Shown: positions 37,728 to 54,151 of the stretch, one piece after another
How positions within the stretch are numbered: the stretch's first letter is position 1
How the letters are laid out: each line of letters opens with the position of its first letter
Assembly: GCA_963828165.1 (NCBI GenBank)
Contig: CAWHDR010000001.1
Span: forward strand, 448,001-512,000
Length of the DNA: 64,000 nucleotides
DNA from: an uncultured Chloroflexia bacterium
GTDB lineage: Bacteria; Chloroflexota; Limnocylindria; Limnocylindrales; CSP1-4
Direction: 5' to 3'
The notes under the pieces: generated by a model
The model's database searches: none
What the model saw: only the letters and a program-made list of their open reading frames with translations
Told to the model about the DNA's origin: nothing
Position numbers and translations under genes: made by a program

Positions 37728-38600
37728 CTAGAACTGCGGCCGTGTCTCGGGATCCGGCCACGACGGACTGTCATCGCCGGCACGCGTCGCGCGGACTCGC
37801 GCGCGCCAGCGCGACCAATGCGGGAGCGCCGCGATCGTGATCGCCGCGCCAACGACGATCCCGGCAGCGATCAGGCCCGCGACCGGGAACGGCCCGAGTA
37901 CCGCGGGATCGCGCCACGTGATCGAGACGGCAGCTCGGACCATCGCCCACGCCCCGATGGCCAGGAGCAGCAGACGCCCCTGCGTCGCCCGAGATCGGTC
38001 GCCCACGCCGCCGAGGATCAGCAGCAGGACCAGGACGAGCGTCGCGCTCCCCTCGTAGAGCTGCGCCGGGTGCGACGGAAGCTCGGGAACCAGTGAGGCC
38101 CAGGGACCCGGACCGAGGTATGCCGTCGACCAGACGGCGTCGAGCGGCGATCCCTGGCCGCTCCCGCCGAGCGCCATGGCCAGCTTGCCGCCGCCCAGTG
38201 CCACGAGCAACGGCAAGGCCAGCACGTGCGCCCAGCGGCCCACCGGTGCGCCGAGCAGCTTTCCGACGTAGGCGCCGGTCAGCGACCCGCCGACGACGGC
38301 GAGCCCGAGCTCGAGCCCGCCGATCGCGGGATCGAGCAGACTGAGCGGACTGGCGGCGAAGGCCTCGGGGACCGTCGTCAGCTGGCCGAGCCGACCTCCG
38401 ATCACGGCTCCTGGCACGGCTCCCACGACGATGTACAGCAGGTCGTCCGGGCGCAATGAAGAGCGCCGAGCCAGGACGCCCGCGACCACCAGGCAGGCGC
38501 CGACCAGGGCGGCAAGGGCGACCGTCTGCCAGCGCACGACGAGGCCGTCGCCGAGGCGCAAGAGGGGGTCGAAATCGAACGCGATGACGGCGATCGGCAC
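37728..38600 (-). CDS. Divergent Lgt-family membrane protein
   Basis: FDP..W, GGRLG, HPAQLYEG present; the GRxGN motif is altered to GKLAM. Confidence 0.75.
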   Translation of the reverse strand: MPIAVIAFDFDPLLRLGDGLVVRWQTVALAALVGACLVVAGVLARRSSLRPDDLLYIVVGAVPGAVIGGRLGQLTTVPEAFAASPLSLLDPAIGGLELGLAVVGGSLTGAYVGKLLGAPVGRWAHVLALPLLVALGGGKLAMALGGSGQGSPLDAVWSTAYLGPGPWASLVPELPSHPAQLYEGSATLVLVLLLILGGVGDRSRATQGRLLLLAIGAWAMVRAAVSITWRDPAVLGPFPVAGLIAAGIVVGAAITIAALPHWSRWRARVRATRAGDDSPSWPDPETRPQF

Positions 38601-38703
38601 GGTCCCGGCAGTGTACCCGTGCGTGGGGTGTCGGCTGGCCGACACGTGGCCTGTCGCGCGTTCCGTCGCGGCTCGATGCCACAGCCGACACCATGCCGGT
38701 CAT

Positions 38704-38843
38704 ACGGCGGTCGCGCTGGGGGCGCACTGCCGTGATGGGGGGAATGGGATCGGCCAGCCTTGGGGGGCGACCGATCAGAGTCCGACGTCCGGTCCTCCGG
38801 GGGGATGGGCCGGACGTCGTGACCACTCGTAGGGGACGTCGTG
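38704..38843 (+). other. Array of four hairpins with GGGG loops upstream of the BTAD gene
   Basis: Stems 38704-38733, 38748-38776, 38783-38819, 38824-38843; loops TGGGG, TTGGGG, GGGG, AGGGG. Confidence 0.6.
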
Positions 38844-38864
38844 CGACACCGATCCGCCACCCCG

Positions 38865-39650
38865 ATGGGCCTGGAGATCACGCTCCTCGGCCGATTCTCG
38901 GTCCGGACCACGACCGGGCAGGAGATCCGGCTCGTGGGGCGCCACGCGCAGGCCCTGTTCACGCTCCTCGTGTTGACCCGTCGACCGCGGACTCGCGAGG
39001 CCATCGCGACCGACCTGTGGCCGGAGTCGATGGTCACCGCCACAGGTCCATTACGCCAGGCCCTGTATCAGATGCGCGGAGCCCTGGCAGGCGCGGGGCT
39101 GGACCTCGATGCGACGCTCGAGGCGGATGCGGAGACGCTTGGCCTGCGACCGGACGTCGTTCACCACCTGGACGCGGATCGCTTCGAGGTGTGCATCGCT
39201 GACGCCGCCTGTGGCGCCGAGGCCGCGGTGGCGCTCTACGGTGGCGACCTCGCCGAGGGGCTTGGGCACGACTGCTTCGCCGCGGAGCGCGAGCGGCTCG
39301 CCGACCGCTACGAGGATGCCCTCGCACACGTGGCCGCTCAACGGCTGGAGGCGGGAGATGTGGATGGCGCCCGCGAAGCCGCGGAGCGGCTCATCGCGCG
39401 CGATCCGCTCCGCGAGGAGGCGCACGAGGTCCTCATCGCCGTGCATGGTCTGGTCGGGTCGCGATCACAGGTCGTCCGCCAGTACCGGCGCCTGCGCGTG
39501 GTGCTCGCGCGCGAACTCGCCGAGCGCCCGTTGCCGGAGACCGACGCGACGTATCGCCTCGCCCTGGCGCGGACCGTGGAGCGCTCGCACCTGCGCGCGA
39601 GCGCGATGGAGCGGCCGGCGGCGATCGCGTCCCTGGCCGCCGTCGGCTAG
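38865..39650 (+). CDS. Stand-alone SARP/BTAD transcriptional activator
   Basis: LLGRF, REAIATDLWPE, LYGGDLAEG, DPLREEAH, PLPET. Confidence 0.88.
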   Translation: MGLEITLLGRFSVRTTTGQEIRLVGRHAQALFTLLVLTRRPRTREAIATDLWPESMVTATGPLRQALYQMRGALAGAGLDLDATLEADAETLGLRPDVVHHLDADRFEVCIADAACGAEAAVALYGGDLAEGLGHDCFAAERERLADRYEDALAHVAAQRLEAGDVDGAREAAERLIARDPLREEAHEVLIAVHGLVGSRSQVVRQYRRLRVVLARELAERPLPETDATYRLALARTVERSHLRASAMERPAAIASLAAVG

Positions 39651-39736: not shown

Positions 39737-40162
39737 GTGCTACGCCCCGTTCTGACGCTGCTCGGCGCGATCCTCGTGCTTGCCGCATGTGCCGCGAGTG
39801 GCGGTGCCGACAGCCCGTCCGGAGGGCTGCCAACATCTCCCGCAGGTGCGTCCGGCGAGCCGGATGCGACCGGTGGCGACTCGCCCCCAATGGGGAGCGG
39901 TGGCGACTCGCTCCCCGCGTCGATCACCGATCCCATCGTCGCCGACGCAGCCACGCGCCTCGGCGTGGATCCATCTGCGGTCACGATCGTGGAGGCCAAG
40001 GCGGAGACGTTTTCCGATGGGTCGCTCGGGTGCCCCGAGCCCGGGATGATGTACACGCAGGCGCTCGTCGATGGGTACCAGGTCGTCGTGGAGGCGAACG
40101 GCACGCAGCTCGACTATCGCGGCAGCGCCCCGGGCAGGTTCAGGATCTGCCAGAACCCCTGA
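39737..40162 (+). CDS. Conserved lipoprotein
   Basis: Lipobox LAAC; DGSLGCPEPGMMYTQA..GY. Confidence 0.8.
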   Translation: MLRPVLTLLGAILVLAACAASGGADSPSGGLPTSPAGASGEPDATGGDSPPMGSGGDSLPASITDPIVADAATRLGVDPSAVTIVEAKAETFSDGSLGCPEPGMMYTQALVDGYQVVVEANGTQLDYRGSAPGRFRICQNP

Positions 40163-40693: not shown

Positions 40694-43474
40694 TTACGGC
40701 GCCGGTGCCGGCACGACCCGGATGGTCGCGTAGGTGTTGCCCTTGCCGACCTTGCGAACCTCGAACGAGACGCCGATCGCGACGCCGTCGTCAGCCGGGT
40801 TGCCGGTGCCGAGAACGATGTTCGAGCCAAGATCCACGCCGTAGAACTCGGGCAGCGGATTGCCGTTCGCATCGACCACGCGGGTCGAATACGGGGCGTT
40901 ACCGACCGAAGGCACGACGACCGAGGCGTCGATGTCGCGGAAGAACAGGCTGCTCCCCCGGATCTCGATGCCTGGATACCAGCCCTTCGCGTCCGTGAAC
41001 TTGCGGACCGCGGACTGCGACCCGAAGTTCGTGCAGTACTCACTGAACGGCTCTGCGGGCAGCAGCTCGAAGCACTCGCGGAACGGGTACGTGCTGCGCA
41101 GGCCGAACGCGATGTTCGACGACTGCGGGCGCGATGGGAGGTTGTTGAGGGTCGATGGATCCTTGTCGGCCGCCAGCCCTGTCCGCCGGAACGGGTCGAA
41201 GTGGCTGTCGACGAGGAGGAGGCCACCCTTCGAGCCGGTGCTCGGCAGGGCCGTGGTCGTCGTGGTCACGTGGTTGTTGTTTCCCCACGTGGTGTCGCGG
41301 TACCAGACGAGCATGCCAGGGGCGTTGTACTTGATCTTCTCGACCTTCCACGCGTCGTGGAGGTAGGTCGAGTCGTACGTGTACTGCAGGCCCTTGTCGA
41401 AACCGTCGAAGTTCCGCCACTCGGCCATGTAGTAGTGGGCCTTGACCTGCGTACCCGAGTCGCGGTGCCAGCCAACGCCGGTCGTATTGGTGAAGGTGGA
41501 TACCACGGGCACCCAGTCGCCGTCGGTCTCCGCGTCGTCACTCCAGACGGTCGCGCCGCCCGAGGTGATCGAGAAGTCGTCGGCGAACCAGTTGCGCTCC
41601 TGGAACGCTTCGTCGGTCGCGAGTCGCAGTCGGAGCTTGATGTTCTGGCCGGCGAACGGGGCCAGCTTGACGTAGTCGAGACGCCAGCCGTGGCTGTCAC
41701 CGGTCAAGCCGTACTTCTTGTCGCCGTAGTCGTGCATCCGGCCGTTCGGGTCGGCATACCCATCGGGCGTCGAGACCTCGACGTCGGCGCCCGTGTAGAT
41801 CTTCTGCTCGGCCCACGTCGTGCCGCCATCGGTCGAGACCTCGAGGAACCCGAAGTCCCAGTCTGCCTCGATGACGTAGTTGTTCCAGAGATTGAACCGG
41901 GTGTCGGCGCCGGCCGGCACCGCGATGTCGCGGGTCAGTCGGACGTCCGCATTGGCCTGGTCGGAACCGCTGTACCACATGCCGGTCCCGCTGTGCGGCT
42001 CGGCGAGGGTGATGACCTTGTTCGGAAGGTCGACCTTGATGCCGTCCTTCGTGCCCTTCGGGGTCCGCGACGTCTGGCCGAGCTGGACATTGCGCGCCGC
42101 CGAGCCCGGAGTGAGGATCAGCGGGTCGGCCCAGCCGAGCACCCACTTGTCCCACAGTCCCATGTGCGTCGGGAGCGACTGGAAGATCGGGCCGCTGTGC
42201 GAGCCCGTGCTCATGAGATCCCAGAAGTCGACAGCGGACTCACCGGCACCCGAGGTGTCGTACAGGTCCGGCAGGCCCAGATCATGGCCGTACTCGTGGG
42301 CGAACACGCCCACACCCGAGTCCTCGGGCTGCACGATGTAGTTCCAGACCTCGATGTCGGTGCCCGGAACCTGGTGGCCGCCGATGATGGTCGAGGAGTG
42401 TGCCCAGATGGCGTAGACGCCCTGCGCGCCACCGCCACCGGACTTGTCCTCGCCCGAGTGGACGAGCACGAGGTGGTCGACGATGCCGTCAGGCTCGAAG
42501 ACGTTGCCGTCACCGTCGGCATCGCCCTGGTCCTCGATGTCGTAGTCCTCCCAGGGGAAGTCCGGCTGCGCGGCTGCGAGTGCGTCGACGGCATGCTCGC
42601 CGAGCGTGCCGGCGCCGCCGGGGTTGTCCGGATGGCCGTTCATGGACTGGATGGCACCGGCTTCCCACACGCCCGCGGCGTTCTGGAAGCAGCGGTTAGC
42701 GCCGTACCACCCCTCGGAATGCGGGACGGTCACCCACGGGGTGGCCGAGCCATTCACGGTGTACGCGCCCTTGGACATCTCCTCGTACATGTTCTTCATG
42801 GTGTAACCGGAGATGTCGATGCCGGCCTTGCCGTCGGGACCGATCAGGTCGGGCCGGACCCGGGTGGTGATGCCCGTCTTGGTGTAGAGCATCTTGTTGA
42901 AGTGGTCCGGCGAGAAGTCCGGCACCCAGAACGTGTTGTTGTCCTCGTGGGTGTAGGTCGTCGGATCCGGGATCTTGTTGTGGAGCGGACCGTTCTGGAC
43001 GTTACCGGGGATGCATTCGCGGCTCTCGAATACCGTCCGCGGCACCATGCTGCCCGTAAAATCGTCGTTCGCCGAGTTGTTGAACTCGACGAGGATCGTC
43101 AGGAGCCGAGCCTCCTGCATGTTCTTGGCTTGCTTGATCTTGCGCGGGCTCGTCTTGGCCTTCATGGCCTTGGCCTCGATCTTGGCCAGCATCTTCGCAT
43201 CGCGCGGGTTGCCGCCGGCGAACTTGCGATCGACCGCGTTGGCCTTATCGATCGCGGCCTTGCGGAGGCCGTTCTTGCCCTTGACTTCCTTGCCGCTGGT
43301 CGAGCGTTCGGCCTGCGGCGCGGCGTAGTTGATGTAGTAGCCGAGGTCTTCGGCCGGGGAAGGTTCGTCCGCGCTTGCGACTCGCTGGGCGACGAAGAGC
43401 GCCGAAGCGAGGAGCGCCAGGACGATGAACGGCGTCAGCAGCCGCATCGCGGCCGTACGCGTCGTCGGTGACAC
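40694..43474 (-). CDS. Immune inhibitor A family (M6) secreted metalloprotease
   Basis: Signal peptide; HEYGHDLGLPDLY; WDLMS; GGAGG SD. Confidence 0.93.
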   Translation of the reverse strand: MSPTTRTAAMRLLTPFIVLALLASALFVAQRVASADEPSPAEDLGYYINYAAPQAERSTSGKEVKGKNGLRKAAIDKANAVDRKFAGGNPRDAKMLAKIEAKAMKAKTSPRKIKQAKNMQEARLLTILVEFNNSANDDFTGSMVPRTVFESRECIPGNVQNGPLHNKIPDPTTYTHEDNNTFWVPDFSPDHFNKMLYTKTGITTRVRPDLIGPDGKAGIDISGYTMKNMYEEMSKGAYTVNGSATPWVTVPHSEGWYGANRCFQNAAGVWEAGAIQSMNGHPDNPGGAGTLGEHAVDALAAAQPDFPWEDYDIEDQGDADGDGNVFEPDGIVDHLVLVHSGEDKSGGGGAQGVYAIWAHSSTIIGGHQVPGTDIEVWNYIVQPEDSGVGVFAHEYGHDLGLPDLYDTSGAGESAVDFWDLMSTGSHSGPIFQSLPTHMGLWDKWVLGWADPLILTPGSAARNVQLGQTSRTPKGTKDGIKVDLPNKVITLAEPHSGTGMWYSGSDQANADVRLTRDIAVPAGADTRFNLWNNYVIEADWDFGFLEVSTDGGTTWAEQKIYTGADVEVSTPDGYADPNGRMHDYGDKKYGLTGDSHGWRLDYVKLAPFAGQNIKLRLRLATDEAFQERNWFADDFSITSGGATVWSDDAETDGDWVPVVSTFTNTTGVGWHRDSGTQVKAHYYMAEWRNFDGFDKGLQYTYDSTYLHDAWKVEKIKYNAPGMLVWYRDTTWGNNNHVTTTTTALPSTGSKGGLLLVDSHFDPFRRTGLAADKDPSTLNNLPSRPQSSNIAFGLRSTYPFRECFELLPAEPFSEYCTNFGSQSAVRKFTDAKGWYPGIEIRGSSLFFRDIDASVVVPSVGNAPYSTRVVDANGNPLPEFYGVDLGSNIVLGTGNPADDGVAIGVSFEVRKVGKGNTYATIRVVPAPAP

Positions 43475-43739
43475 GATCTGTCTCCTCCAGATTCGTAGGG
43501 TGACGCGAGCGCATGCGGCGGGGCCGCATGCGTCCACGGCGGAGCTGGGGGCGATCCAGCCGGTGCCTGGCCTCCAACATCAGACACGGCGATCTCACTT
43601 CGACGCCTGGGGATTGGGGCTCCCCAAGGCTCGAATGCGTTCGTGCTAGGACCCTAACGCCGTAACCGGCCGTGGGTCAACTCAGGGGCGGCGACGTGGC
43701 CACCATGCGTTGCTCGTTGGCAACGCAACTTTCTCGGGC

Positions 43740-53108: not shown

Positions 53109-54151
53109 GGGCTCGGACGCGGCTCGGTCTCGTCAGGGGCCGCGGCATCGCCATCGACGGCGGGCTCGGGCTCGTCCGCGGCGTCGGTCTCGTCGGCTTC
53201 GTCGTCGAGCGTCTCGTCAACCGAGTCGTCGACCGCGTCGTCGTCGATCCGGTCGCCGACATTCGCCCACGGCTCATCGATCGGTCGGGTCATCCAGGCC
53301 GCGCCAAGCGCACCCCACGTCGCGCGCTGGGGATCCGTCGGCGGCTTGTCGCCCATCCGGCTCCCACGATGTCGCAGGACCAGCCCCACGACCCCGATCG
53401 CGATGAACGCCAGCGAGACGATCTGCGCGGTCGGAACGCCGAAGAACGTCCAGTTGTCCGCGCGCAGCGTTTCGAGCGCGAAACGCGTGACGCCGTACCA
53501 GATGAAGAAGGTGAGCAGCAGGTCACCGGGTCGCAGCCAAGACCGCAGCCGATACCCGAGGAACACGAGGAAGGCGGCGCCGACCAACCCCGAGATCGAT
53601 TCGTACAAGAAGAGCGGGTGGAACCGGGTGGTCTCGGCCAGCGTGTCGCACGAATAGATGACGAGCCGGTGGGCGCAGTCGATCGGGATGCCCCACGGCG
53701 CCGCCGTCGGCGGCCCGTACAGCTCCTGGTTGAAGTAGTTGCCCCACCGGCCGATGGCCTGCATGACGAACAGGGCGGGCGCGATGATGTCCGCCCAACG
53801 AGCGAACGACACGCCGCGGCGACGCGCGTACCACCATGCCGCGAGCGTACCGGTCACGATGCCGCCGAACACCCCCAGGCCCGAATAGGGCGGCAGGATG
53901 ATCTTGAGGGGATCGTTCGCGTACAGGGCCCATTGATCGATGACGTGGTAGAGCCGTCCGCCGATCAGGGCCGCGATCGACACGATGATGATGCCGTTGC
54001 CGACGATGTCGGGGTCCTCGCCGGCGGATCGCGCAAGGCGGATGAGGACGACGTATGCCGCCGCCAGCCCGATCGCGTAACAGAGCCCGTACCAGCCGAT
54101 CGTGATGGGACCGAGCTGGAGCGCGACGGGATCGGGCGGGATGTCGAACAT
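53105..54151 (-). CDS. lgt: Prolipoprotein diacylglyceryl transferase
   Basis: WYG, GRWGNYFNQELYG, HPLFLYE, YGVTRFALE. Confidence 0.93.
   Translation of the reverse strand: MFDIPPDPVALQLGPITIGWYGLCYAIGLAAAYVVLIRLARSAGEDPDIVGNGIIIVSIAALIGGRLYHVIDQWALYANDPLKIILPPYSGLGVFGGIVTGTLAAWWYARRRGVSFARWADIIAPALFVMQAIGRWGNYFNQELYGPPTAAPWGIPIDCAHRLVIYSCDTLAETTRFHPLFLYESISGLVGAAFLVFLGYRLRSWLRPGDLLLTFFIWYGVTRFALETLRADNWTFFGVPTAQIVSLAFIAIGVVGLVLRHRGSRMGDKPPTDPQRATWGALGAAWMTRPIDEPWANVGDRIDDDAVDDSVDETLDDEADETDAADEPEPAVDGDAAAPDETEPRPSP

Follow-up and report, generated by a model that had tools for sequence, protein, structure and literature searches.

What is the G-rich sequence that directly precedes a small SARP-type regulator gene in an uncultured bacterium of the class Limnocylindria, and what would read it? 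The stretch analysed (the window) comprises 64,000 nucleotides of contig CAWHDR010000001.1 (positions 448,001 to 512,000, forward strand; GenBank assembly GCA_963828165.1), and coordinates below are those of the window unless a contig is named. The genome examined is a 3.31-Mb assembly of 69.6% GC and 87.7% completeness. A preliminary description made from the letters of the window had proposed four consecutive GGGG-loop hairpins leading into a stand-alone BTAD regulator, as an undescribed structured RNA. We show that window ~38700-38840 (plus strand) is a predicted 5' leader of the SARP mRNA with three consecutive hairpins (P1, P2 and P3) that are conserved by covariation. On the sequence evidence given here this leader is a genuine, previously undescribed orphan cis-regulatory RNA motif; its structure is well supported, and for its mechanism we infer a candidate below. 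The leader and the gene that it precedes are laid out as follows.

38704..38733, plus strand: hairpin P1, with an 8-bp outer stem containing one G·U pair, a bulged C and a 4-bp inner stem
38737..38742, plus strand: single-stranded G6 linker between P1 and P2, consensus GAUG-G5/6-AA
38748..38776, plus strand: hairpin P2, with a 6-bp outer stem plus an inner stem
38780..38823, plus strand: hairpin P3, with 3+13+3 bp (a 19-bp interrupted stem) and one G·U pair
38831..38836, plus strand: Shine-Dalgarno (SD) sequence AGGGGA, 4 nt before the GTG at 38841
38841..39650, plus strand: gene for the small SARP regulator (269 aa; winged-helix DNA-binding domain plus BTAD), GTG start at 38841

The P1 loop holds G5 (38718-38722), the loop region of P2 reads CUGGGGG and is conserved, its G6 (38762-38767) falling partly in the loop and partly beside it, and the P3 loop holds G6 (38799-38804). 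The P3 stem is long and conserved in sequence (core CGUCCGGCCC / GGGCCGGACG); its 3' end is 17 nt from the start codon, and P3 is inside the usual 30S footprint. Across leaders the SD lies 8-12 nt after P3 and 4-6 nt from the start codon; the P3-to-SD spacing is short and fairly constant. The G tracts in the window are 14, 19 and 31 nt apart (13-31 nt if an extra GGG at 38746-38748 is counted). Calculated stabilities were -22.4 kcal/mol for P1 and -35.2 kcal/mol for P3 alone. The minimum free energy (MFE) fold of the 215-nt plus-strand region recovered P2, P3 and a portion of P1, the outer strands of P1 pairing with the flanks; the 151-nt leader folded alone gave all three hairpins. The preliminary description was right about stems 1-3, about the G·U pairs that it noted and about the G6 linker. 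The fourth hairpin of that reading (CAC..CGT/ACG..GTG) is not recovered: the P3-to-start region of 66 distinct tails averaged -5.4 kcal/mol vs -5.9 kcal/mol in shuffles and so has no extra stability, the covariance model places no pairs there, and the GGGG assigned to its loop is the SD. The fold of the single sequence gives modest evidence above chance (215-nt region, plus strand: z = -2.75, 1 of 200 shuffles as stable); conservation among orthologues is decisive.

SARP orthologues (51-94% identity) were drawn from same-genus genomes and from 80 public metagenome-assembled genome (MAG) contigs titled Chloroflexota or Candidatus Limnocylindrales. Their upstream regions keep the three G-rich-loop hairpins while the stem sequences of P1 and P2 differ, which bears out the earlier suggestion of conserved G-rich loops on variable stems. 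A covariance model made from the window's single sequence matched 63/80 loci on the strand of the gene, each match running up to the start codon, and a 42-leader model matched directly upstream on the gene's strand in 71/80. One of the nine loci missed by the latter is without upstream DNA, and the remaining eight, when folded, gave related, diverged hairpins with G-run loops. Pair statistics were computed on an alignment (A8) of 70 leaders, 69 of them distinct, that was fitted to the model and contains related sequences, so that the following shuffle comparisons overstate significance: among the 69 distinct leaders, 90.5% of cells formed standard pairs vs 74.3% in shuffles, and the covariation score was 0.417 vs 0.153 (0/500 shuffles reached either value). 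With the pairing partners slid by 1-3 columns, the covariation score fell to 0.04-0.08. Both sides had changed in 34/42 pairs, including 13/13 in P1 and 9/10 in P2. The 13-bp core of P3 is paired in 98.9% of cells, with 3/13 pairs invariant; at one P3 pair, 38 leaders have G·U, 17 have G-C and 13 have A-U, and 1 leader is unpaired. P3 was also predicted independently by RNAalifold on a plain MAFFT alignment of ten leaders. When the 69 leaders were folded singly, 59 gave exactly three hairpins and 53 had at least three G-run loops. The orthologous leaders thus hold both covarying stems and G runs, the features whose absence had been named as grounds for dropping the idea. Compensatory changes lie above the controls, and the element keeps a fixed position and orientation relative to one gene family, as is general for structured cis-regulatory RNAs.

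The pairs also report which strand is folded. On the plus strand, G·U cells outnumber A·C cells by 253 to 64 overall, by 66 to 2 in the P3 core and by 58 to 1 in the inner P2 stem; therefore, the folded strand is the plus strand, and the element is a predicted leader of the SARP mRNA rather than a mirror-image, 6C-like RNA on the minus strand. The plus strand is the more stable one in 61/69 leaders, and within the window's own genome the covariance model gives the plus strand 148.7 bits and the minus strand 20.9. A search of Rfam 15 found no family beyond noise on the plus strand. We treat the sub-threshold matches (minus strand: 6C, sX13 and RAGATH-5; plus strand: mir-H5 and flg-Rhizobiales) as consequences of hairpins with C or G runs and not as memberships; the weak 6C match arises because the minus strand mirrors the G-run loops. 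Covariation, the G·U excess and the lack of a plus-strand Rfam family uphold the proposal of an undescribed structured plus-strand RNA leading into the regulator.

Whether such G-run arrays are common in DNA of 70% GC was addressed by scanning the genome, as had been suggested at the outset, and the outcome depended on the scan. A permissive MFE scan called ~1,900 of 11,718 G4+ runs per strand in loops (~1/6), giving dozens of hairpin clusters, and was replaced by a simple count of G-run clusters because it lacked discrimination in DNA of this composition; a strict hairpin scan (perfect stems of at least 5 bp) missed the locus itself because the stems carry bulges. By the simple count, no other site on either strand of the 3.31 Mb packs three or more runs of at least six G or six C into 140 nt. 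Runs of G>=6 are rare, the plus strand having 291 of them, and the other dense G/C-run clusters, among those inspected, are coding low-complexity repeats. The densest C- and G-run clusters, both outside the window (G000:C1:1412900-1413300 and C1:908990-909180), are coding tandem repeats (PTEA; Gly/Val-rich or PKPT) and not RNA elements.

The G runs themselves are kept at four sites. A pure run of at least four G is present in P1 in 59/69 leaders, in the linker in 62/69, in P2 in 69/69 and in P3 in 68/69, mostly as G5 or G6. The SD is of GAGG/GGAG type in 43/69 leaders, the 3' tail of the 16S rRNA carries a canonical CCUCC, and in a crude survey of long open reading frames (ORFs) in the genome the words AGGAG and GGAGG are enriched 2.0-2.4x before genes and GGGGG only 1.1x. 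The oligo-G sites are thus SD-like and not copies of the SD, because the loops keep pure G while the SD is GAGG-type and GGGGG is unenriched; oligo-G as such appears to be under selection. GGA occurs only where a G run precedes A (the linker, the P3 loop and the SD), and in the loops of P1 and P2 the G run is followed by C.

The regulator is more than the bare BTAD protein originally called. Pfam BTAD (PF03704) matches residues 121-238 at 3.6e-13, and the winged helix itself is not called by Pfam; a 10-orthologue profile aligns residues 1-244 with residues 1-257 of the SARP EmbR (2fez_A, E = 1.9e-7), and the protein is therefore a complete small SARP with winged helix and BTAD. Upstream of the leader, the divergent promoter region and its second gene are as follows.

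38601..38840: intergenic region between divergent genes, an Lgt-family gene (minus strand) and the regulator (plus strand)
37728..38600, minus strand: divergent Lgt-family paralogue (Pfam LGT, 62 bits)
38628..38645, no strand: 18-bp perfect palindrome with half-sites TGTCGG / CCGACA, outside the RNA model
38686..38694, plus strand: conserved CGACA half-site overlapping a -10-like CAnnAT hexamer (38689-38694), with columns G107-A110, A113 and T114 invariant

The genome has two Lgt-family genes, a canonical lgt (208 bits, window ~53378-54130, minus strand) and this divergent paralogue, which is divergently adjacent to the SARP gene in 79/80 orthologous loci. The longest ORF of the paralogue (37728-38645) is probably over-extended, since distant alignments begin near residue 11-16; from where they begin, its start is likely the GTG at 38600 rather than 38645. 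That GTG is preceded by a conserved TACACT (-10-like) box. The half-sites of the 38628-38645 palindrome are invariant in 10 orthologous regions around a variable centre, without compensatory change, and no other such site exists in the genome. The half-sites of a second inverted TGTCG/CGACA pair (38652-38657 / 38686-38690) are invariant as well, likewise without compensation. By these features the palindrome and the second pair together look like a protein operator of the divergent promoter region; on the palindrome, shared with the lgt paralogue, the SARP probably acts. A scan of the region for promoters and terminators returned nothing, including no consensus sigma-70 promoter; from the conserved hexamer we infer a promoter role for 38686-38694 and a transcription start a few nt 5' of P1. 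An upstream ORF from an ATG at 38693 was considered and rejected, as this ATG is not conserved in orthologues. On the 3' side of the SARP gene lies an ORF of 141 aa (window 39737-40162, plus strand) that begins with a lipoprotein-type signal (…LAAC) and has no Pfam or NCBIfam family; it is downstream in only 25/80 orthologous loci, and elsewhere a convergent gene follows directly.

How such a leader would act can be proposed from its layout. We suggest, tentatively and with somewhat less than even confidence, that the four oligo-G sites (P1, linker, P2 and P3) would together offer multivalent docking to a trans-acting partner that recognises them through C-rich sequence or is specific for G, either a small RNA (sRNA) with C-rich loops of the 6C, sX13 or RNAIII type or an oligomeric RNA-binding protein. 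The docked partner would also cover, or block access to, the P3 hairpin and the G-rich SD close by, and docking would thereby gate translation of the SARP and probably also the stability of its mRNA; the SARP would in turn act at the palindromic operator, unique in the genome, that its gene shares with the divergent lgt paralogue. Leaders under CsrA control and the thrS operator follow the same principle. A further precedent comes from mycobacteria, where 6C uses its C-rich loops to pair with stretches rich in G; many of these lie in loops of 5' untranslated regions (5'-UTRs) or in ribosome-binding sites, and such stretches occur in 14/16 validated targets (from part of PMC6486639).

Several observations weigh against multivalent docking, besides the inflation of the shuffle statistics given above. 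The candidate partners CsrA, Hfq and 6C were all not found in the 87.7%-complete genome; for CsrA, PF02599 had no match at E<=1, absence being unproven at this completeness. A search for C-rich-loop hairpins, single or paired, inside and outside a crude coding mask, returned only terminator-like or coding ones and no convincing sRNA. The leader could be constitutive, because the SD is not sequestered in any conserved structure. A protein or DNA site, too, would be compatible with how strongly the sequence of the P3 stem is conserved. Two other pairing partners were considered and set aside. Pairing of the leader with a conserved C-rich element 3' of the SARP gene is rejected, since the region beyond the gene is not conserved and holds no such element. 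Elsewhere in the window (43474-43620, minus strand), the ORF for an M6 (InhA-like) peptidase probably starts at a GTG near 43474 behind a GGAGGAG Shine-Dalgarno sequence rather than at 43537, and its leader contains a 9-bp hairpin with a CCCC loop, with a C-rich-loop hairpin further upstream; the CCCC-loop hairpin has no evident link to the SARP leader.

The rival explanations are weighed here in the order of ribosome standby, passive leader, sponge sRNA, G-quartet, DNA operators and a minus-strand 6C-like RNA. In a ribosome standby or SD mimic, the G runs would pair with the anti-SD (CCUCC, with one G·U), hold the 30S subunit near the true SD and enhance or titrate translation without a dedicated partner. 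The canonical CCUCC tail, a GGGGGA(C/A/U)-like word common to the P3 loop, the linker and the SD, and a few P3 loops that read GAGGGG like the SD (leaders L008 and L009) speak for it; yet the loops hold pure G runs and not the GGAGG or AGGAG enriched before this genome's genes, and an A at the third position, which would pair better with CCUCC, is rare in them, so that we consider this unlikely. Slightly less likely still is a passive leader, in which stable 5' hairpins would shield the mRNA from 5'-end-dependent RNases and the G-rich loops would be a by-product. The stabilities of P1 and P3 and the free SD fit such a role, but a by-product would not hold pure G>=4 at four sites (59-69 of 69 leaders) while stems drift, nor would an unpaired G5-6 linker be kept. 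We give a low probability to a separate plus-strand sRNA that would end at P3 and act as an oligo-G sponge for C-rich RNAs or proteins; read-through or a separate promoter would then supply the SARP. Sponges typically have multivalent loops, and P3, a long GC-rich hairpin, could terminate or be a processing product, but no U tract follows P3, no terminator was called, the P3-SD spacing is short and fairly constant, and in the loci and genomes searched the element never occurs away from a SARP start.

A cation-dependent G-quartet, in which an intra- or intermolecular G-quadruplex would compete with or bridge the hairpins and switch translation, would draw on the four conserved pure oligo-G tracts plus the SD tract, and quartets need selection for pure G. 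Against this, the tracts are 13-31 nt apart and sit in loops whose covarying hairpins have stabilities of -22 to -35 kcal/mol; there is no canonical G3+N1-7 pattern (four G3+ tracts with loops of ~1-7 nt); a 12-bp helix holds its apex too far from the linker at its base for the two to meet; and covariation marks the hairpins as the selected state. The intramolecular hairpin/G-quadruplex switch raised in the preliminary description is therefore energetically unlikely, and we regard the quartet explanation as a whole as very unlikely. More improbable again is a DNA-level element, in which a dimeric regulator of the divergent promoter region would use the palindromes as operators or cruciforms and RNA would play no part. 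The conserved P3 stem (3/13 core pairs invariant) and the true operator-like palindrome 60 bp upstream would suit such an element, but the stems of P1 and P2 drift freely with compensation, unlike operators read by protein, and the asymmetry of G·U over A·C is strand-specific and would be meaningless for duplex DNA. The slimmest chance goes to a minus-strand 6C-like RNA with C-rich loops, acting as an sRNA or as the lgt leader. Over its full length, Rfam 6C (RF01066) can be aligned to the minus strand (38743-38819; 29.5 bits, E = 0.034 for 301 nt), and a faint sX13 match lies on the same strand. The 6C score falls short of the 47-bit gathering cut-off, however, the E-value is already 0.28 in a 2.5-kb search, and a whole-genome search gave no 6C match at E<=10. 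On the minus strand the 253 G·U cells become A·C mismatches, and the plus strand is the more stable one in most leaders; the organism belongs to the Chloroflexota and not to the Actinobacteria, the range given for 6C in part of PMC6486639; and the lgt start and its -10-like box are at least 100 nt beyond the element.

Comparison with known systems places the leader near several of them and within none; a literature search, with supplements outside its scope, found nothing describing the motif. CsrA/RsmA leaders and CsrB/RsmZ sponges carry a conserved purine motif, with an A(N)GGA core in hairpin loops, on several variable stem-loops and with one copy at the SD, for multivalent translational control. 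The display on several variable stem-loops plus the SD is the same here, but the motif is pure oligo-G, the element is a cis leader of one gene and not an sRNA, and the CsrA gene was not found, so that the analogy to CsrB drawn earlier lacks its protein. The Escherichia coli thrS operator has conserved-loop hairpins just upstream of the SD, where a bound oligomeric protein competes with the 30S subunit. The leader shares this arrangement; its loops are unlike any tRNA anticodon loop, and the regulated gene encodes a transcription factor. In guanidine-II (mini-ykkC) riboswitches, conserved apical loops on variable stems, a linker and then the SD follow one another, and the loops, not junctions, are functional. 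The order of parts is alike, but the loops of the leader are G5-6 and not ACGR tetraloops, the downstream gene is for neither transport nor detoxification, there is no Rfam match, and a Watson-Crick kissing interaction between two G runs is impossible.

The closest likeness is to the G-rich 5'-UTR targets of sRNAs with C-rich loops. 6C/B11 of Actinobacteria and RNAIII and RsaE of Staphylococcus are such sRNAs. In the mycobacterial targets bound by 6C, as in the leader, unpaired oligo-G lies in 5'-UTR loops and in the ribosome-binding site (part of PMC6486639), and sX13 of Xanthomonas is a C-rich-loop sRNA grouped with the same precedent (part of PMC3771888). The leader differs in carrying four sites, with covarying hairpins, in one leader, far more than the described targets, and in that no C-rich-loop sRNA is known from, or was found in, this Chloroflexota genome. 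To 6C itself (RF01066) the leader stands as a mirror image: two adjacent hairpins with six-C loops appear on the opposite strand, in a full-length sub-threshold alignment. The strand and the phylum are wrong for 6C, the score is 29.5 vs 47 bits, and the leader is tied to a gene start while 6C stands alone. Returning to multivalent docking, a bolder version of it would make the leader the first natural 'oligo-G display' riboregulator, with G5-6 tracts on a rigid three-hairpin scaffold read by a dedicated Chloroflexota partner (for example a C-rich-loop sRNA, a G-side 6C counterpart evolved independently outside Actinobacteria) or joined by cation-dependent G-quartets between loops or molecules, and passing a signal to a SARP that controls an Lgt-paralogue lipoprotein-acylation module; we consider this doubtful.

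The element is single-copy in its own genome and was not found away from a SARP start in that genome, in the 80 loci or in a related genome with two modules. In the latter, a second complete module of lgt paralogue, G-loop leader and SARP is present (L121, G161:C10:354169-357312), with a SARP of 51% identity to the query and a leader of 77 bits; the leader is copied there together with the lgt-SARP module. SARP orthologues were detected in 28/121 sampled genomes of the family, in 11/49 genera. From other genera of the family, 15 of 20 upstream regions matched on the correct strand at E<=0.01 (12 full-length, 3 in P3 only). A class-wide model search that scored 20 candidates per genome matched only in the window's genus (7/151 genomes counting G000, the window's own; 6/9 other genomes of the genus). 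The targeted searches did find the motif beyond that genus, in several genera of one Limnocylindria family; it is restricted to this one family of uncultured Chloroflexota and tied to the SARP/Lgt-paralogue module.

Limnocylindria are abundant, uncultured Chloroflexota of soil and freshwater, for which we know of no described RNA regulators; a non-exhaustive literature search turned up, among the papers listed, none naming the class. The alignment of leaders and the model derived from it are a ready basis for a new RNA family with an unusual and sharply defined feature, pure oligo-G at four displayed positions with clean covariation. The leader offers a tractable case for how G-rich loops are read in high-GC bacteria in which Hfq and CsrA were not found, and a handle on post-transcriptional control of SARP regulators outside Actinobacteria and on the link of such a regulator to a divergent Lgt paralogue.

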